The notes below the pieces were generated by a model. The model saw only the letters and a program-made list of their open reading frames with translations. It made no database searches and was not told the origin of the DNA. Shown in pieces: positions 21,222 through 62,768 of a DNA stretch of 64,000 bases. How positions within the stretch are numbered: the stretch's first letter is position 1; each line of letters starts with the position of its first letter. The translations under genes were made by a program, and so were the position numbers. The DNA is from Limnothrix sp. BL-A-16 (GTDB lineage: Bacteria > Cyanobacteriota > Cyanobacteriia > CACIAM-69d). The DNA lies in NCBI GenBank assembly GCA_041937175.2, contig CP166615.1, positions 672,001-736,000 of the forward strand. The letters are read 5' to 3'.

Positions 21222-21359
21222 GGGCCTGTCGTCGTTGAGCACGAAACCCTAGATCTGTCGTTAGCGGATTGCGTGGGACAAGGGGCTTAAACCCTTGCCC
21301 CCACGACAATTGATGACTAATGCCTAGCCTGTACTGAAAGATACTTCTCAGACATCCTC
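21222..21359. mobile_element. chimeric MITE: family B arm joined to family A arm at the palindrome
   Basis: starts TA|GGGCCTGTCGTC (B TIR), palindrome variant at 21279-21297, ends CTTCTCAGACATCCTC|TAA (A TIR). Confidence 0.82.
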
Positions 21360-38982: not shown

Positions 38983-39256
38983 TCCTGAAAGCTTAAAAGA
39001 TCACGAACCTAGAAAGTAATTCCCCTGGAAGATCGTGATTTTACGAAGGTGCAGGCAAGGGGCTTAAGCCCCTTGTCTTCTGGGGAACTGGGTTAGGATA
39101 ATTTGGGCTAAGCCTGAAGGCTTAACAGTCACGAACCTGGAAAATAATTCTCCTAAAAGATCGTGATCTTGGAAGATCATGATTTTACAAAGGTGCAGGC
39201 AAGGGGCTTAAGCCCCTTGTCTTCTGGGGAACTGGGTTAAGATAATTTGGGCTAAG
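38983..39256. repeat. imperfect tandem duplication, each unit carrying the 20-bp palindrome
   Basis: perfect palindromes at 39056 and 39200 with near-identical flanks. Confidence 0.88.
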
Positions 39257-44010: not shown

Positions 44011-44949
44011 ATGCGTGTTTTAGTGATGGGTGGAACGCGGTTTATTGGCGTTTATTTGACCCGATTATTGGTGGAAAAAGGTCATGAAGTCACCCTATTG
44101 AATCGTGGTCGTAAGCCCTCACCCGTGGAAGGTCTGGAAGTCATTCAGTGCGATCGCACCCAAGGCGATGAATTGAAATCGAAACTAGCCCATCGGCACT
44201 TTGAATGGGTGTTTGATAATAACGGTCGTGAACTCAGCGACACGCAACCGCTGGTGGAAGTGTTGCGCGGCAAAACCGAGCATTTTCTTTACATGAGTTC
44301 GGCTGGTGTTTACCTGAAAACTGACCAATTGCCCCACTGCGAAGCAGACCCCGTTGATCCCAAAAGTCGCCACAAGGGCAAACATGAAACGGAAAGTTAT
44401 TTAGCCCACCACGACGAACCCTTCACATCGTTTCGACCAACCTATATCTACGGGCCCCTGAATTACAATCCGTTGGAATCTTGGTTTTTTGATCGGATTG
44501 TGCGCGATCGCCCCATTCCCATTCCCGGCAACGGATTACACATCACCCAACTGGGCCATGTGGCTGATTTGGCCAGCGCCATGGTGGCGGCGGCGGGTAA
44601 CTCCAAAACCATCGGCAAAATCTACAACATTTCGGGCGATCGCTACGTCACCTTCGATGGTTTGGCGCGAGCCTGTGCGTTGGCGGCCGGTAAAGATCCG
44701 GAGCAATTGCAACTGATTCATTACGATCCCAAGCAATTTGATTTCGGTAAGCGGAAAGCTTTCCCGATGCGCGTTCAGCATTTCTTTGCCAGCAATCAAC
44801 AAGCAAAACAGGATTTGGGTTGGCAACCTGCCTACGATTTGGTTTCTGGGTTGCGAGATGCGTTTGAAAATGATTACTTACTGTCGGGAGCCGATCGCGC
44901 GGAAGTGGACTTTTCAACGGATGAAGAAATCCTGACAGCCTTGGCTTAA
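44011..44949 (+). CDS. NAD-dependent epimerase family, CSP41-like RNA-binding protein
   Basis: MGGTRFIG, YMSSAGVY, DPKSRHKGK, RPTYIYGP, KAFPMR. Confidence 0.88.
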   Translation: MRVLVMGGTRFIGVYLTRLLVEKGHEVTLLNRGRKPSPVEGLEVIQCDRTQGDELKSKLAHRHFEWVFDNNGRELSDTQPLVEVLRGKTEHFLYMSSAGVYLKTDQLPHCEADPVDPKSRHKGKHETESYLAHHDEPFTSFRPTYIYGPLNYNPLESWFFDRIVRDRPIPIPGNGLHITQLGHVADLASAMVAAAGNSKTIGKIYNISGDRYVTFDGLARACALAAGKDPEQLQLIHYDPKQFDFGKRKAFPMRVQHFFASNQQAKQDLGWQPAYDLVSGLRDAFENDYLLSGADRAEVDFSTDEEILTALA

Positions 44950-45131
44950 ATCTGTCGAAAACTCTTGCGAAATCGTGAGGGGCAAGGGGCTTAAGCCCCT
45001 TGTCTGGTTGTGTTGAGAATGTCCACTAATGAAGAAATCCTGACAGCCTTGGCTTAAATCTGTCGAAAACTCTCGCGAAATCGTGAGGGGCAAGGGGCTT
45101 AAGCCCCTTGTCTGGTTGTGTTGAGAATGTC
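44921..45131. repeat. 108-bp-period tandem duplication of a gene 3' end plus palindrome
   Basis: 44921-45023 and 45029-45131 differ at one position as read. Confidence 0.93.
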
Positions 45132-46750: not shown

Positions 46751-46881
46751 GAGGTTGTTTGAAAAGCCAAAATTGCTACTCTCTACGCCCTAGCAATCAA
46801 TGTAGACAAGGGGCTTAAGCCCCTTGCCCCCAAGACCATTAGTGCTTGGCCCATGCCAAAAGATACTTTTCAAACATCCTC
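46751..46881. mobile_element. MITE family A copy (131 bp), uninterrupted
   Basis: TGA|GAGGTTGTTTGAAAAG...CTTTTCAAACATCCTC|TGA (3-bp TSD); perfect palindrome at 46807-46826. Confidence 0.9.
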
Positions 46882-46954
46882 TGATCAAAATTTTGAAATT
46901 GGTTTCCGATTGGGTTGCCTATTGTTTTTTGATCACTTGTTTTCTAAAAATCGG

Positions 46955-47089
46955 TTAATCCAAGATTGATTAGTTTGAGATGAATTAATGCCAAATTGCT
47001 TAATCCAAGATTAATTAACCCAAGATTGCTTAATCTAAGATTAATTAGTTTGAGAAGGATTAATGCCAGATTGCTTAATCCAAACTAAT
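46955..47089. repeat. 15-bp tandem repeat x9 (TTAATCCAAGATTRN) with a 75-bp higher-order repeat
   Basis: units in phase from 46955; units 1-4 resemble units 6-9. Confidence 0.8.
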
Positions 47090-49683: not shown

Positions 49684-50034
49684 ATGCTAGATACCATGGA
49701 TGACTCCAGCTTCGATCGGGAAGTGCTACAAACGCCCGGTTTGGTGTTGGTGAACTTTTGGGCCCCTTGGTGTGGATTGTGTCGTTTGATTGATCCCCTC
49801 CTGAATAAGCTGCGATCGGACTGGGGTGAGTCGGTCAAGTTGGTTAATGTCAATGCAGACAGCAATCTGAGATTAGCCAATTCCTATCGCCTCACCACCC
49901 TGCCGACGGTGATTTTATTTCAGGATGGAAAACCAATTTTTCGGCTCGATCGCTTTGAAGGCAAAGAAGAGTTTTTGCGCCACCTAAACCGTGCTGTGAA
50001 TCAAGTGGAATTGTCTCGATCGCTTACGTCCTGA
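49684..50034 (+). CDS. trxC: atypical thioredoxin (WCGLC, TrxC-type)
   Basis: VLVNFWAPWCGLC active site, TLPT cis-Pro loop. Confidence 0.8.
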   Translation: MLDTMDDSSFDREVLQTPGLVLVNFWAPWCGLCRLIDPLLNKLRSDWGESVKLVNVNADSNLRLANSYRLTTLPTVILFQDGKPIFRLDRFEGKEEFLRHLNRAVNQVELSRSLTS

Positions 50035-50071
50035 GCAGTTTCCAAGCCGCCGTCGGTTCAAAGCCCCCTAA

Positions 50072-50347
50072 GAGGATGTCTGAAAAGCCAAAATCGATAC
50101 TCTGCACGCCTCATCGATCGACGGAGACAAGGGGCTTAGGGCCTGTCGTCATTATTTCGAGGTGATGCTGAAACAGTTGATCTTCCATGCCCTAGTCGTC
50201 GCAACAAGGGGCTTAAGCCCCTTGTCCCCCACGATCCGCTAACGGCAGAATCAGGGTTTCAGGCGATTTGACGACAGGCCCTAAGTCCCTTGCCCCCACG
50301 ACTATTGGTGCATTGCCCGTGCCAAAAGACACTTTTCAGACATCCTC
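50072..50347. mobile_element. MITE family A copy interrupted by a family B copy
   Basis: TAA|GAGGATGTCTGAAAAG...CTTTTCAGACATCCTC|TAA; 276 bp = 131 + 143 + 2. Confidence 0.92.
50139..50281. mobile_element. MITE family B copy (143 bp) nested in the palindrome of A
   Basis: CAAGGGGCTTA|GGGCCTGTCGTCA...TGACGACAGGCCC|TAAGTCCCTTG; own perfect palindrome at 50205-50224. Confidence 0.93.
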
Positions 50348-50458
50348 TAAAATCGCCGATTGTGCCCTGGCCGACTTGATTGGCGACTTGCGCGATCGGG
50401 GTGGGTCTGCTTTGCTGTTGGCGAACTCAATCCCGCATCAGTCTTTTACTGCCATTTT

Positions 50459-51604
50459 ATGGATTGGTATCGCGTCCTTCGTCCGTTGGTATTTTCGCCC
50501 TTGGCTCCTAGCCCCGAACGGGCCCACGACCAGGCCATGGAGTTGTTGCAGGGGTTGGCTCAGTTGCGGCGATCGGCCACGGGGCGATCGATGCTGGCCA
50601 ACCTGCGCCATTGGTTCACTGTCCAAACACCGGAACTGAGTCAAACCCTCTGGGGCTTGAAGTTCGAGAACCCCGTGGGTCTGGCGGCTGGCTTTGACAA
50701 AGATGGGGTAGCCGCCGGGGCTTGGGAGCAATTGGGGTTTGGTTTTGCGGAGTTGGGCACGGTGACGCTCCATTCCCAGCCGGGCAACCCGCAGCCTCGG
50801 CTATTTCGCCTGCTGCCCGATCGCGCCGTCCTGAACCGGATGGGATTCAATAACCAAGGGGCTGCGGCGCTGGCTGAACGGCTGGCCGCCCTTCGTCCTT
50901 CCCCCTGGGAAAATCCCAACATCCCGATCGGGGTCAACCTGGGTAAGTCCAAAATCACCGAATTGGAAGGGGCCGCCGCCGACTATTTGGGCAGCTTCCG
51001 GCTACTGAAGAACTGGGGCGATTATTTTGTGGTGAATGTGTCTTCGCCCAACACACCCGGCCTGCGATCGCTCCAGGATGCCGATCGACTTGGGGAAATT
51101 TTGGACAGCCTTCAGCAAGACAACCAAGGCCAGAAGCCCCTGTTGGTGAAAATTGCGCCGGATTTGGAATGGAGCGCGATCGATGACGTAGTTGGCCTGG
51201 CCCAGCGCTTTGGCCTAGCGGGGGTGATTGCCACCAACACCACCATCCGCCGCGACCAACTCCAAACCAAAACCCTGAAGCAGACGGGCAACCCGGTCAC
51301 CGCCGAAGCCGGGGGCATTAGTGGCCAACCCCTGCGCGATCGAGCCACGGAAGTCATTCACCATATCTATCGTCAAACCGCCGGCCAACTGCCCATCATT
51401 GGCGTGGGGGGAATTTTCAGCGCCGAGGATGCCTGGGACAAAATTGCCGCCGGGGCCAGCCTCGTGCAGGTCTACACCGGCTTTGTCTACGAGGGGCCAG
51501 GATTGCCCCGCCGCATTGCTGAGGGCTTGGCGGCCAAGCTGGCGGAGCGTGGCTGGTCATCCATTACCCAGGCGATCGGCTGTCACCATGGCTCCTTGGA
51601 TTGA
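50459..51604 (+). CDS. pyrD: quinone-dependent dihydroorotate dehydrogenase
   Basis: NPVGLAAGFDK, NRMGFNN, VNVSSPNTPGLR, VKIAPD, GGISG. Confidence 0.96.
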   Translation: MDWYRVLRPLVFSPLAPSPERAHDQAMELLQGLAQLRRSATGRSMLANLRHWFTVQTPELSQTLWGLKFENPVGLAAGFDKDGVAAGAWEQLGFGFAELGTVTLHSQPGNPQPRLFRLLPDRAVLNRMGFNNQGAAALAERLAALRPSPWENPNIPIGVNLGKSKITELEGAAADYLGSFRLLKNWGDYFVVNVSSPNTPGLRSLQDADRLGEILDSLQQDNQGQKPLLVKIAPDLEWSAIDDVVGLAQRFGLAGVIATNTTIRRDQLQTKTLKQTGNPVTAEAGGISGQPLRDRATEVIHHIYRQTAGQLPIIGVGGIFSAEDAWDKIAAGASLVQVYTGFVYEGPGLPRRIAEGLAAKLAERGWSSITQAIGCHHGSLD

Positions 51605-53107: not shown

Positions 53108-53207
53108 TTAAACCCGGCCAAAGCCAGTTCCCAGACTTTTCGCGAACCGAAATCATGGGTTTTTGGGGCCTGTTTTCATTGCCCCAATCGTCGTAGCAAG
53201 GGGCTTG

Positions 53208-53385
53208 GGGCCTGTCGTCATTTCCATCTCCGTAGGGGTTGGGTCTCCCAACCCTAACCCGGGCGATCGCCACAACCCTGGCCAACACCAAGGATCACGG
53301 GAACTGGGTGGGGAAACCCCGCCCCTACGACTGATTGGTTTGAAGAACGAGGTCATCAGGGTTTGGGTGATTTGACGACGGGCCC
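53208..53385. mobile_element. family B-ended MITE (178 bp) with REPIN-like cargo
   Basis: GGGCCTGTCGTCA...TGACGACGGGCCC|TA; follows half-palindrome CAAGGGGCTT at 53197. Confidence 0.8.
53231..53329. repeat. REPIN-like inverted pair of GTAG-type REP sequences
   Basis: CGTAGGGGTTGGGTCTCCCAACCC ... GGGTGGGGAAACCCCGCCCCTACG. Confidence 0.75.
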
Positions 53386-54776
53386 TAATCTTCCGGGAGG
53401 TCATCCCGTTCCAGGTCATAGAGCACCTTCTCCAAATACCAATCCTCATCCATGTTGGGATAATGTTCGCGGGCCCGATCGAGCAGGGTTTGCGCGATCG
53501 CTTCCTGGCCGCCAACCCGCCCCAACAGCCGCTGCCAAAGGGGATTTTGGGCTTTTTGGGGCAACCCCGGAGACAAGTTCACCGGCTGTTGCAACATCTT
53601 GAGCTGTTCCAAGGTGGTGCGATAGCGTTCCCAGTCGTTGCGATCGCAAAACAAGCTGGCGGCGGTTTGGTAGTCCTCGATCGCCTGCTTCAGGTTTTCT
53701 TGGCGAACGGCCGCTTGGGCCCGCAACAGCAAAATGGCGGGTCGATCGCCCCCCAACTCCAACGCTCGGTCATAGTCCCCGATCGCCGCGCTGTAATTTC
53801 CCAGTGCCTGTTGGGCATCGCCCCGAGCCATCCACAGCAGCGGATTTTGGTCATCTTGGGCCAAAGCTTGGTCTAAATCTGCCAACGCCCCCGCCCGATC
53901 GCCCATTTCCAGCCTGGCCCTGGCTCGGTAACGGTAGAGCGTGGCATCAGCCCCACCCCCTTGAATCGCCCGGTTGCAATCCGCGATCGCCCCTTGCCAG
54001 TTGCCTTGCTTAATGCGCACCGCTGCCCGACAAGCCAGCGCCTTTGGATCCTGTGGATCCAACTTCAGGGCCCAATCTAACTCCGCGATCGCCCCCTGCA
54101 CATCTCCCGACTCCGCCCGGTTCAAAGCCTGGGCATAAAAGGCTTCTGGGCGCATCATTGCGCCCACGGGTGCGCCCGCATTGGGTGTACCTGTATTGGA
54201 CGTGCCCGTACTGGACGTGCCCGTGGTGGTGGCCTGCAAACTGGCCAACGTGGGCGGTGCATTAAATGGTGGCAACGGTTCCGTCAGCACGGGCGGACTG
54301 GCGTTGGGTTGTAGCTGTTTCAGTAAATCCAAACATTGCCGGGCCCCCACGGGATCCCGGCGATCGAGATAAAGCTCCGTTGCCTTGCGTAGGCTGACGA
54401 TCGCGGCGGCCAGATCTCCTCGTTTGCGCAGGGCCGTTGCCTTCAGTTGGTGGGCCGCTGGATTTTGAGGATTGAGCTGAAGCAGGCTGGCTAAATCATC
54501 CAACGCCCCATCAAAGTGATCCAAAACCACACGAACCAAGGCTCGGCCATAGAGAGCCGGTTGATAATCGTTGGCCAGTTCGATCGCCCGTGAATAGTCA
54601 AAGGCGGCCTGTTGCAACCGGCCCATATCAAAATAGGCCAAACCCCGCCGGTAATAGGCTTCAGCCCAATGGGGATCCGCCGCAATGGCTTGGTCAAAGC
54701 AAGCGATCGCCGCTGCTTGGTCGCCTTGCTTTGCCTGCTCGATGCCCTCCCAAAAGGCCGCATTATCAGTCATCAC
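53385..54776 (-). CDS. tetratricopeptide repeat protein
   Basis: repeated AYYRRG / A..DY.RAL TPR motifs in two clusters. Confidence 0.9.
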   Translation of the reverse strand: MMTDNAAFWEGIEQAKQGDQAAAIACFDQAIAADPHWAEAYYRRGLAYFDMGRLQQAAFDYSRAIELANDYQPALYGRALVRVVLDHFDGALDDLASLLQLNPQNPAAHQLKATALRKRGDLAAAIVSLRKATELYLDRRDPVGARQCLDLLKQLQPNASPPVLTEPLPPFNAPPTLASLQATTTGTSSTGTSNTGTPNAGAPVGAMMRPEAFYAQALNRAESGDVQGAIAELDWALKLDPQDPKALACRAAVRIKQGNWQGAIADCNRAIQGGGADATLYRYRARARLEMGDRAGALADLDQALAQDDQNPLLWMARGDAQQALGNYSAAIGDYDRALELGGDRPAILLLRAQAAVRQENLKQAIEDYQTAASLFCDRNDWERYRTTLEQLKMLQQPVNLSPGLPQKAQNPLWQRLLGRVGGQEAIAQTLLDRAREHYPNMDEDWYLEKVLYDLERDDLPED

Positions 54777-59799: not shown

Positions 59800-62460
59800 A
59801 TGTCGCGGAACCGGTTTTTGGAAGCATTTTGGGGTTTGAGTGCAGATGAAGCGCGATCGTTTCAACTTCCCGGAGCCAAGCCCCACTATCTTCCCGATCG
59901 CCCGGTGCGGACACAACATGTGGCCCTTGATTTGGTGTTGGACATTCCCAATTGTCGGGTAGCGGGAACCTGCTCGATCGACCTGTTGCCCGTGCAAGAT
60001 GGGGTCGATCGCCTGGAATTAGATGCGGTGGCTATGCAAATTCAAGGGGTTCGGGTGGGCGAAGCTGCCCAGCAATTTGAATATGATGGCGAGCAGTTAG
60101 CGATCACTCTGTCGGAGCCAACCCAGCGCGATCGTGCCTTCAAATTAGTCATTGACTATCAATTAGATCGTCCCCAACGCGGCATTTACTTTGTGCAGCC
60201 CACGGCGGACTATCCCAATAAAAATGTGCAGGTTTGGACCCAGGGAGAGGATGAAGATTCTCGCTTCTGGTTCCCCTGTTTTGATTTTCCAGGACAACTC
60301 TGCACCTCGGAAATGCAGGTGCAAGTGCCCAATGGTTTGCTCGTACTCTCGAATGGAGAGCTGATTAATCAGACAACCAAGGGCAAAACCACCACTTACC
60401 ATTGGCATCAAAAACAGCCTCATCCCATTTATCTGTTTACTCTGGCCGTGGGAGATTTTGCAGAGATTAAAGATGAGTGGCGCGGCCGACCTGTGAGCTA
60501 TTACACCGCTCAGAATCGGGCTTCGGAAGCCCAGCGCACCATGGGCAAAACGCCCGCGATGATGGATTTTCTCAGCGAAAAATTTGACTATGACTATCCC
60601 TATAGCAAGTATGGGCAAGCTTGCATGGAGGATTTCATTTTTGGAGGCATGGAAAATACCTCCATGACCCTGTTAACCGATCGTTGCTTGTTAGATGAAC
60701 GAGCCGCGATCGATAATCGCAATTCTGAAGCTTTGGTGGTTCATGAGCTGACGCACCAGTGGTTTGGTGATTTGCTGGTCATTAAGCATTGGTCCCATGC
60801 TTGGCTGAAAGAAGGCATGGCCACCTATTCCGAAACCCTCTGGACTGAGCATGAATATGGATCGGAGGAAGCAGCCTATTATCGCTTGGGTGATCAGCGG
60901 GCCTATTTAGGGGAAGATCGGCGGCGCTACCGACGGCCCATGGTGACCCATGTTTATCGCGAGCCGATCGAACTCTACGATTGCCATACCTATGAAAAGG
61001 GCGGCTGTGTTTATCACATGCTGCATCAGGAATTGGGCGATGATTTGTTTTGGAAATCGATTCAAACATTTGTCAAAAATCACGCCTTTGGTGCTATCGA
61101 AACGATCGACCTCTTGCGAGCGATCGAACAGGCAACGGGTCGAAATTTGTTGTTTCTGTTTGATCAGTACGTGTTTCGGGGAGGTCATCCTGATTTCAAA
61201 GTTGCCTATAGCTGGGATGGAGAAAATAAGATTGCAAAATTGACCGTGACCCAAACCCAAGCCAAGGAAGGGGATTTGGAGACGCTGTTTAATTTGAAAA
61301 TTCCAGTGTCCTTTGCGACCCTCAGCAGTGAAGCAGCCAGCCCTGCTCCGAAATCGAAGAAGTCGAAAAAAGTAGCGGCTCCCGCCCCTAAGGTCACGTT
61401 CAAAACCGTGAAGCTGGCCATTCACGATCGGGAACAAACCTTCTACTTACCCTTGGAGCAAAAACCAGATTTCGTCAGTTTTGATCCGGGGAATCATTGG
61501 CTGAAAACGGTGGAGCTAGATTATCCGCTGCCGGAATTGAAAGCCCAATTGCAGTTTGATCCTGACCCGATCGCCCGAGTATTTGCGGCGAAAGCGATCG
61601 CCCAGAAAGGCACGCTGGAGGCCTTGAATGCTTTGGCCCAATCCCTGACGAGCGATCGCTTTTGGGGGGTGCGTGCCGAGGTGGCAGAAAATCTGGCCAC
61701 CATCGGTTTAGATGGGGTGTTGGCTGCCCTGAAGCCGGGGTTGAAGGATTCGGATCCCCAAGTGCGTCGATCGGTGATTCAGGCCATTGCCTCCCTCAAA
61801 ACCGAAGCAGCTTATTCAGCGCTGGAGTCGATCGCCAAGAAGGGCGATGCCAGTTACTACACCGAGTCGGCGGCCTTGGCGGCCATCGGGTCGATCGCGG
61901 CGGCCCAGCCGGCCTTGGTCGATCGGGCGATTGCGTTGCTCAAATCGGCCCTGAAAAAGCGATCGGGCTGGAATGAAGTCGTTCGTTCCGGGGCCGTCAG
62001 CGGCCTAAGCGCCCTCAAGACCTCTGCCGCCGCCCTGGATTTGGTGCTGGAAACCAGCCAACCGGGCATTCCCCAGGCCCTACGCTTAGCGGCGATTCGG
62101 GCCCTGGGCGCGGTGGCTAACGGCCAAGAAGCCCCAGCGGTCGATCGGGTGTTGAATGCACTGCAAACCTATGCCCGCGAGAGCTTTTTCCTCACCCAAG
62201 TGGCGGTGGTGGTTGCCCTAGGACAAATGGAAACTACCAAGGCGATCGGGATTTTGCAAGGGTTGGCCAGCCAGTCGCCCGATGGCCGCGTGCGCCGGAT
62301 GGCGGAAGAGGCCGTGAAGCGAGTGCAGCACAATGCGGGTTCCGATCGCGCCTTGGATCAGGTGCGCCAAGAGCTAGATCAACTGAAAAAAGACAACCAA
62401 ACCCTGCGATCGCGCCTGGAAGACTTGGAGGCAAAATCAAAACCGCAACCCGCGAGCTAG
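59800..62460 (+). CDS. pepN: M1 aminopeptidase with HEAT repeats and C-terminal coiled coil
   Basis: GGMEN, HELTHQWFG...WLKEG, YEKG. Confidence 0.92.
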   Translation: MSRNRFLEAFWGLSADEARSFQLPGAKPHYLPDRPVRTQHVALDLVLDIPNCRVAGTCSIDLLPVQDGVDRLELDAVAMQIQGVRVGEAAQQFEYDGEQLAITLSEPTQRDRAFKLVIDYQLDRPQRGIYFVQPTADYPNKNVQVWTQGEDEDSRFWFPCFDFPGQLCTSEMQVQVPNGLLVLSNGELINQTTKGKTTTYHWHQKQPHPIYLFTLAVGDFAEIKDEWRGRPVSYYTAQNRASEAQRTMGKTPAMMDFLSEKFDYDYPYSKYGQACMEDFIFGGMENTSMTLLTDRCLLDERAAIDNRNSEALVVHELTHQWFGDLLVIKHWSHAWLKEGMATYSETLWTEHEYGSEEAAYYRLGDQRAYLGEDRRRYRRPMVTHVYREPIELYDCHTYEKGGCVYHMLHQELGDDLFWKSIQTFVKNHAFGAIETIDLLRAIEQATGRNLLFLFDQYVFRGGHPDFKVAYSWDGENKIAKLTVTQTQAKEGDLETLFNLKIPVSFATLSSEAASPAPKSKKSKKVAAPAPKVTFKTVKLAIHDREQTFYLPLEQKPDFVSFDPGNHWLKTVELDYPLPELKAQLQFDPDPIARVFAAKAIAQKGTLEALNALAQSLTSDRFWGVRAEVAENLATIGLDGVLAALKPGLKDSDPQVRRSVIQAIASLKTEAAYSALESIAKKGDASYYTESAALAAIGSIAAAQPALVDRAIALLKSALKKRSGWNEVVRSGAVSGLSALKTSAAALDLVLETSQPGIPQALRLAAIRALGAVANGQEAPAVDRVLNALQTYARESFFLTQVAVVVALGQMETTKAIGILQGLASQSPDGRVRRMAEEAVKRVQHNAGSDRALDQVRQELDQLKKDNQTLRSRLEDLEAKSKPQPAS

Positions 62461-62768
62461 GGCCCGTCGTCATTTCCTGGGATTCAATGAGAACGGTTGA
62501 TCTTCCATCCCCTAACCGCCCTAAACAAGGGGCTTAAGCCCCTTGTCCCCCACGATCTGCTAACGGCAGATCATGGGTTGCGGGTTAAACGATGACCAGT
62601 CCTCAGCCCCTTGTCCCCCACGATCTGCTAACGGCAGATCATGGGTTGCGGGTTAAACGATGACCAGTCCTCAGCCCCTTGTCCTCCACGATCTGCTAAC
62701 GGCAGATCATGGGTTGCGGGTTAAACGATGACAAGCCCTAAGCCTCTTGCCCCCACGATCTGCCAACA
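62460..62768. mobile_element. MITE family B copy followed by reiterated right arms
   Basis: TA|GGGCCCGTCGTCA start; palindrome at 62526-62545; 68-bp units at 62537, 62605, 62673, partial unit at 62741. Confidence 0.85.

Follow-up and report, generated by a model that had tools for sequence, protein, structure and literature searches.

Repeated insertion of a MITE into the centre of a dispersed palindrome, a likely orphan REP, in Limnothrix sp. BL-A-16

Results

Organization of the locus

The window analysed here is a stretch of 64,000 nucleotides from the complete, HIP1-rich 4.56-Mb assembly of the cyanobacterium Limnothrix sp. BL-A-16 (genome G000; positions without a prefix are those of the window). 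Between a thioredoxin gene, presumably TrxC, and pyrD, the start of which was placed from its ortholog in G001, lies a composite of two MITEs, in which MITE B occupies the exact middle (the central TA) of the 20-bp palindrome, here called P, of MITE A (Table 1). A has perfect 16-bp terminal inverted repeats (TIRs) and a TAA on each side, and B has perfect 13-bp TIRs, a TA on each side and an intact P of its own. A first-pass annotation had proposed that removal of B and one TA would restore an A of the same length as the uninterrupted copy 3 kb upstream, and this holds: the two parts of A (67 and 64 nt) rejoin to 131 nt and align with that copy collinearly and without gaps, at 109 of 131 positions. 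The simple A copy at C1:124917 is a better comparator, with 129 of 131 bases the same, again ungapped; the right half-palindrome of A has one C>T change (TAAGTCCC).

The congener G002 lacks exactly 279 bp (276+3) at this position and keeps one TAA between flanks that are 94-95% identical, which fixes the ends of A and confirms its 3-bp TAA duplication. The search for related alleles suggested by the annotation thus yielded an empty allele; an A-only allele was seen neither in G002, which is empty for both elements, nor in contigs from four near-identical public samples, which enter the ends of A from both flanks, so that A is present, and then break inside the repeats.

The B copy at this locus is a mosaic of two subfamilies. 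Over the first 111 nt it cannot be told from the B copies at C1:3331424 and 3511754, the last 32 nt of which differ from those here at 10-11 positions, and its own last 32 nt are identical to B at C1:1898120 and 2511949; the junction lies about 25 nt beyond P, away from P itself. The composite region is predicted to form a long nested RNA hairpin (z = -7.75), as expected because of the inverted repeats. A promoter scan returned one weak sigma-70-like site (50326-50353) across the right end of A and the duplicated TAA, facing pyrD, which is at chance level (1 versus 0.9 expected), and no terminator-like site was found. The effect of the insert on the host is probably close to neutral; it adds a predicted long hairpin between the thioredoxin gene and pyrD.

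Table 1. Features of the composite and its surroundings (window positions)
Feature	Position	Strand	Remarks
Uninterrupted A copy	46751-46881	+	131 bp; TGA flanks; P at 46807-46826; also present in G002
Upstream thioredoxin gene	49684-50034	+	PF00085; WCGLC motif; stop 37 nt ahead of A
Left TAA, 3-bp target duplication of A	50069-50071	+	Single TAA at G002 empty site; 279-bp indel
Left part of MITE A	50072-50138	+	TIR 50072-50087 (16 bp); left half-P 50128-50138, ending in target TA (50137-50138)
MITE B	50139-50281	+	143 bp; 13-bp TIRs; ends match IS5-family elements with two frameshifted ORFs
Intact 20-bp palindrome P in B	50205-50224	.	Likely orphan REP of a RAYT-like clade
Last 32 nt of B	50250-50281	+	Match another B subfamily; copy looks recombinant or gene-converted
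Second TA (putative 2-bp duplication of B)	50282-50283	+	Opens right half-palindrome of A (50282-50292), with one C>T
Right part of MITE A	50284-50347	+	16-bp TIR at 50332-50347
Right TAA, target duplication of A	50348-50350	+	Identical to left TAA; G002 empty site
Downstream dihydroorotate dehydrogenase gene pyrD	50462-51604	+	PF01180; likely start 114 nt past A

P is shared by three MITE families with unrelated ends

The P 20-mer has 326 exact copies in the genome and 424 when up to two mismatches are allowed, and reversed-pattern controls gave 0 occurrences. Clustering of the flanks of the 424 copies resolved three MITE families (A, B and C), the ends of which are unrelated, and 128 copies without a family arm on either side. 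By a crude gene mask, intergenic DNA holds 373 of the 389 P centres and 91 of the 93 B copies. A has the properties of a MITE, being 131 bp long with a 16-bp TIR and high copy number, and it accounts for indels of 131+3 relative to G002 with TNA flanks; 71 of the 91 simple copies have identical 3-bp flanks, 69 of these being TNA. B likewise is a high-copy 143-bp element with a 13-bp TIR, and 68 of its 93 full-length copies have TA on both sides. Its indels are of the element plus 2 at TA, in which a duplication and an element-borne TA are not separable. Family C comprises elements of about 142 bp at CTAG sites, with TIRs unrelated to those of A and B and with P in the centre (for example, G000:C1 1830812-1831111 and 3776648-3776941).

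Half-palindromes of P adjoin B on both sides in 23 of 93 copies, on one side in 22 and on neither in 48. In many of the 22 one-sided copies a repeated arm or another B comes directly after B, and these 22 were excluded from the enrichment count given below. P is hit by B in lone copies, in A and in B, and by a variant of B (B', described below) in a third MITE. Thus, the description of B as seated in the palindrome of A is accurate for this locus and not as a relation specific to A, and the proposal that B regenerates its own target is borne out by loci at which B lies inside the palindrome of another B.

Several other arrangements accompany these repeats. At 62460-62749, B is followed by a tandem array of 68-bp units (right arm plus half-P), and similar arrays occur genome-wide; they probably arise by slippage between P and half-P. 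A chimera at 21222-21359, composed of one B arm, a degenerate P and the right arm of A, is likely the deletion product of a B-in-A composite. Lone P copies lie within local duplications of 144 and 108 bp (39001-39256 and 44914-45129) that are single copies in G002, and P may promote or mark tandem duplication at these places. AT-rich 15-bp tandem repeats (46947-47083) directly follow a simple A copy, upstream of a gene that we take to be LysR-like.

Insertion of B into P is repeated and independent

The A shell at this locus shares 98% identity with A copies that lack B and no more than 85% with eight of the nine other shells that contain it; no other B-bearing shell is its sister. Because the shell is closest to B-less copies, B would have entered a pre-existing A; the order proposed by the annotation (A first, then B) is therefore well supported in general and, at this locus, by inference. 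The 10 B-bearing A shells are scattered among the 91 simple A copies, needing 10 changes in the A tree against a mean of 9.7 after shuffling, and B lies in them in either orientation (5:5). The P-nested B copies are dispersed over the B tree in the same way, with 18 changes against 19.7 after shuffling. Although the two trees are built from few columns and leave many forks open, pairwise identities agree with them.

Filled and empty alleles were compared with G002 over 1.58 Mb, about a third of the genome, in which 157 orthologous repeat loci were paired. Eighteen alleles were filled, and 8 of these rejoin cleanly (81-92%, ungapped) onto a P that is intact in the other genome. Two of the 8 lie in A shells, where one genome has an undivided A and the other has the orthologous A interrupted by B. 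Four further alleles pair with an intact P plus local indels, and in the remaining 6, this locus included, the other genome is without an intact P. Insertion of B is the simpler reading of these pairs, although precise excision would look identical. In the G000/G002 pairs, the filled allele equals the empty allele plus the element plus TA. Since all clean B sites are TA, duplication of TA and insertion of a 145-bp element without duplication are formally equivalent, and the first-pass annotation overstated the case in presenting the locus as proof of a 2-bp target duplication. IS5-family elements of this type duplicate their target, and the reading of the TA as a duplication leans on that.

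Transposition of an A-B composite as a unit was considered and rejected, the shells being scattered among simple A copies. A related explanation is that the composite formed once and was then copied, or that B was brought in through homology of its P with the P of the host. Three near-complete composites do carry the same B subfamily in the same orientation, and the mosaic B shows that copies recombine; however, identity among the three shells is only 84-85%, and each of them resembles a different simple A at 94-98%. Entry by homology would neither add a TA nor split P centrally, and P is also split by P-less B' elements and by a P-less full-length IS (see below). This explanation is largely refuted, and we consider it extremely improbable. 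B lands in P repeatedly and independently, as seen in 23 of 93 copies and in the 8 clean filled/empty pairs. Repeated independent insertion at one position of a palindrome is what defines REP-targeting elements; the type 1 association, in which all or nearly all copies lie in REPs, does not apply to B, with 48 of 93 copies outside P.

A short target preference would explain most of the enrichment at P

B' is a 178-200-bp variant with the ends of B and, as cargo, a GTAG-type REP pair in place of P. It adjoins half-P in 5 of 8 copies in this genome and in 5 of the 7 found in the available G002 sequence, two shorter TIR pairs without P being set aside. Since P-less B' and a P-less IS of genome G003 also split P, the P carried by B is not needed for targeting: it is cargo, a passenger and not a guide. 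One such B', of 178 bp, lies at 53166-53388 beside the half-P of a B remnant, just past the stop of a minus-strand TPR gene.

We modelled the target from 36 non-P sites with TA on both sides, minus 7 that resemble P or a B end, leaving 29 sites; the model also relies on the crude gene mask. Outward from the TA, these sites prefer R (93%), G (57%), C (47%) and C/T (69%), and P reads A, G, C, C outward from its central TA. With a matrix of 3-5 positions, the range in which the leave-one-out gain plateaus, the model predicts that 14-28% of intergenic insertions fall at P centres (bootstrap 10-38% at four positions), compared with 1.0% under a flat expectation. The observed share is 23 of 71 (32%), near the top of the model range, and the true share could exceed this because the 22 one-sided copies were excluded. 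A short sequence preference learned from non-P sites would therefore, under this model, account for most of the enrichment at P.

An alternative is that B inserts at TA with little preference and that the excess at P reflects survival in tolerant intergenic or MITE DNA, where P centres and B copies indeed nearly all lie by the crude mask. The 1.0% baseline, however, is already limited to intergenic TA, and A, under the same selection, adjoins half-P in only 3 of 332 end motifs, although its TNA target also occurs in the centre of P, which argues against survival bias alone; we regard this alternative as very unlikely. It is also conceivable, though we judge it unlikely, that the transposase of B recognizes P as a hairpin or cruciform, or recognizes a host protein bound to P, and that sequence preference is secondary. 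The observed share, possibly an underestimate, lies at the upper end of the sequence-only prediction; one B lies at a TA within an unrelated GTAG-type REP (C1:3807085), and strong REP selectivity is described for five IS families by Tobes and Pareja (PMC1525189). Against this stand the B copies outside P, about half of the total, unlike the fully selective elements listed in Table 2 of that paper, which have every copy in REPs, and the fact that a matrix without any P-like training site already predicts 14-28%. The position of B at the centre of P inside A is thus probably the work of a cut-and-paste transposase acting in trans, with a short target preference that P fits best.

Full-length relatives of A and B encode IS5-family transposases

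Full-length elements with matching ends were found in other genomes. In G081, an IS5-family element of 915 bp has 16-bp TIRs of A type, lies between TTA flanks and contains a single 266-aa ORF (NF033580, 222 bits, above the cut-off), and G022 contains an 834-bp element with B-like TIRs at a CTAG site and two frameshifted IS5-family ORFs, both above the NF033580 cut-off. G003, which belongs to the same family as the present genome, contains an 862-bp element with B-type TIRs and two open frameshifted ORFs (DUF4096 and DDE_Tnp_1), the first of which is 63% identical to that of the G022 element. This element (G003:C10:100407-101455, L219) is itself without P and lies exactly at the TA of a split P, within a B-like MITE with a duplicated arm; its ends match B over about 16 nt, beyond which there is no clear match. 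It is the best candidate for the source of the transposase of B. We take the parents of B to belong to the IS427 group (two frameshifted ORFs, TA target) and that of A to the IS1031 group (one ORF, 3-bp TNA target).

In the complete genome G000, a TIR-pair scan, tblastn and a family search found no transposase cognate to the ends of A or B, and a B-type transposase query had no match in G001 or G002 either. The IS5-family gene at C1:3867261 of G000 has no adjoining A- or B-type ends, and plasmid searches returned only matches of palindrome or TIR length and no annotated transposase. The enzyme that would mobilize A and B is thus deduced from other genomes. Shells of A and B type elsewhere in cyanobacteria have different interiors, which suggests that the cargo of these MITE shells may be exchangeable. 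MITEs with A-type ends in other cyanobacteria (L172-L197 and L216-L217) have unrelated interiors, several of them palindromic, and none among those read contains P.

P is a likely orphan REP of a RAYT-like clade

In size (20 bp), copy number and largely intergenic placement, P resembles a REP. The canonical GTAG/GTGG foot is absent, its feet being NAGA or G-rich, which sets P apart from the canonical GTAG REPs. Of 128 lone copies, 108 have NAGA on one side, and the form of this foot met most often is CAGA (52 of 256 sides). Between G000 and G002, P is nearly always gained or lost with a whole MITE or a larger indel, and movement of P alone between these congeners was not seen, bar two indels of 30-32 bp. 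These two cover P alone inside B copies (G000:C1:327229 and 1782718 regions) and could reflect either loss of the hairpin or insertion of P.

An exact 21-mer with P occurs in 42 of 201 genomes of the class, and in the loci read from other families P often lies inside MITE-like shells with other ends. In G081, P copies cluster around a Y1_Tnp domain that lies in frame in a Type ISP restriction-modification gene, and all exact copies counted in that genome are at this Y1 locus. Among 40 genome loci retrieved with this domain, P or a compensatory variant was present at 12 of 13 close ones (at least 47% identity) and at 0 of 27 distant ones; among 58 metagenome loci, the counts were 37 of 40 and 1 of 18. 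Together, 49 of the 53 close clade members from genomes and metagenomes have P or a compensatory variant beside them; some of these loci are near-duplicates, so that not all are independent. The variants keep stem pairing while the central four bases vary, they change with the protein clade, and some copies lie within the gene.

The clade has HuH, W and Y motifs (DHVH / WAQ / YVxNNH) and a conserved N-terminal motif. It passes the Pfam Y1_Tnp cut-off, and the NCBIfam RAYT model NF047646, the best family match, gives 53-60 bits for three clade members, below its cut-off of 80. At 11 of 13 close genome loci the open frame is far longer than the Y1 domain (298-1144 aa), and 6 of 7 clade frames scanned contain restriction-modification domains. 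The Y1 domain is read in frame in Type ISP and Eco57I-like proteins (L095-L107 and L300-L340; for example, G081:C218:21765-22412), the flanking P being read through as peptide. One member (L106) is a free-standing 199-aa protein between two variant palindromes. The P-linked clade is present in 3 of 201 class genomes, all three P-positive.

The clade was not found in genomes G000 to G007, and in five other P-bearing genomes P was near 0 of 23 Y1 loci. The sole Y1_Tnp gene of the present genome (G000:C1:1721486-1722283, L001, 265 aa) has no P within about 1.5 kb; the 3' end of this gene is duplicated about 500 bp downstream. At another locus (L080, G014:C1:2030200), a P doublet lies at the overlap of two methyltransferase-like gene pieces, with no Y1 ORF in the ORF list, and is possibly the footprint of a lost cassette.

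These associations suggest that P is likely an orphan REP spread as MITE cargo, the recognition hairpin of a RAYT-like HUH tyrosine-transposase. A different interpretation, which we think unlikely, is that P is not a RAYT substrate and is instead a palindrome, either mobile in its own right or convergent, that simply builds up in the flexible linkers of restriction-modification genes next to a Y1 domain that hops. The long frames with restriction-modification domains would suit it, as would the far wider distribution of P than of the clade among class genomes; on the other hand, the variants track the protein clade and keep their pairing, the free-standing member is flanked by two variant palindromes, the exact copies in G081 are all at the Y1 locus, and every clade-bearing genome has P. 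We give about even credence to the fuller proposal that P serves as the recognition hairpin for a hitherto undescribed clade, RAYT-like and residing in frame in restriction-modification enzymes, and that the escaped hairpin rides unrelated cut-and-paste MITEs, for one of which it is the best landing site, thereby seeding further copies of itself.

Discussion

Nested MITEs and insertion into REPs are already known, and nesting alone is ordinary. QMITE2 of Coxiella burnetii carries a REP that is a hot spot for IS1111 (20 of 21 copies; PMC5896051). In the account given there, as here, a REP-bearing MITE is hit by another element; the incoming element is the autonomous IS1111 and the REP is GTAG-tagged, whereas at our locus the element that enters is an IS5-type MITE, which brings its own copy of the palindrome and so also nests in itself, selectivity is partial and three unrelated shells carry the same cargo. 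REP-targeting insertion sequences include IS1397, ISKpn1, IS621, ISPpu9/10, ISRm22 and ISNm1106, the last being an IS5-family case, with about half of its copies in REPs (PMC1525189, PMC3184786). As these are described, they share with B repeated insertion at one position of an abundant palindrome; in contrast, B is non-autonomous, its target is non-GTAG and a short sequence preference would explain most of the bias. The closest parallel to the MITEs themselves may be the Nezha-like elements of cyanobacteria (PMC3184786), which are 130-170 bp long, have TIRs matching IS elements from other species only and show filled and empty orthologous sites, as here. Compared by description only, they differ in that the account of them mentions no shared palindromic cargo or self-targeting.

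The REP/REPIN/RAYT (TnpA-REP) systems surveyed by Quentin et al. 2018 (PMC6006769) offer the nearest relatives of the P-linked clade, by description class 3 and subclass 2.4. The likeness lies in the HuH...W...Y core and in a gene flanked by dispersed high-copy hairpins, with in-gene copies as in subclass 2.4. Class 3 TnpA-Y1 proteins are described as having a CnGA foot, W[TA] and YV..EQ motifs and extended N-terminal conservation. The CnGA foot resembles the NAGA of P, and our clade has WA, YV and an N-terminal motif, although its Y motif ends in NNH and not in EQ; the set DHVH / WAQ / YVxNNH matches no row of Table 1 of that survey exactly. As far as that survey describes these systems, ours differs in that the domain often lies in frame inside Type ISP and Eco57I-like enzymes and in that the REP is, in the present genome, orphan and MITE-borne. 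The core string of P was not found in two supplements of that paper. A search for the exact strings of P, its variants and their peptide readings, with most subscription papers outside its coverage, retrieved nothing relevant, and a topic search of titles and abstracts found no description of this palindrome.

Our data suggest a model in four steps. A occupies a TAA site that is empty in the congener G002. B-type ends choose Y-TA-R, leaning to G and then C further out, a pattern seen at the insertion sites themselves; the centre of P would be the most abundant good match to this pattern in intergenic DNA. P would have originated as the REP hairpin of a RAYT-like HUH tyrosine-transposase clade that is absent from this genome, and would have become cargo in at least three MITE families. 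Each jump of A, B or C would thereby seed a new target for B and so give rise to nested stacks, while slippage or recombination between the repeated half-palindromes may generate the arm arrays and chimeras.

What this locus adds is a traceable chain that includes a likely cognate enzyme for the palindrome, full-length parents of both MITEs, a parent lying in the same target and P itself as cargo. In addition, the 150-aa Y1 domain and the 20-bp non-GTAG hairpin provide a simple pair for testing. The model would offer REP families a specific way to persist and to grow in number without a RAYT gene, in keeping with the presence of P in 42 and of the clade in 3 of the 201 class genomes. If true, the self-seeding loop could explain how hundreds of copies of an orphan REP are present in a genome without its transposase.
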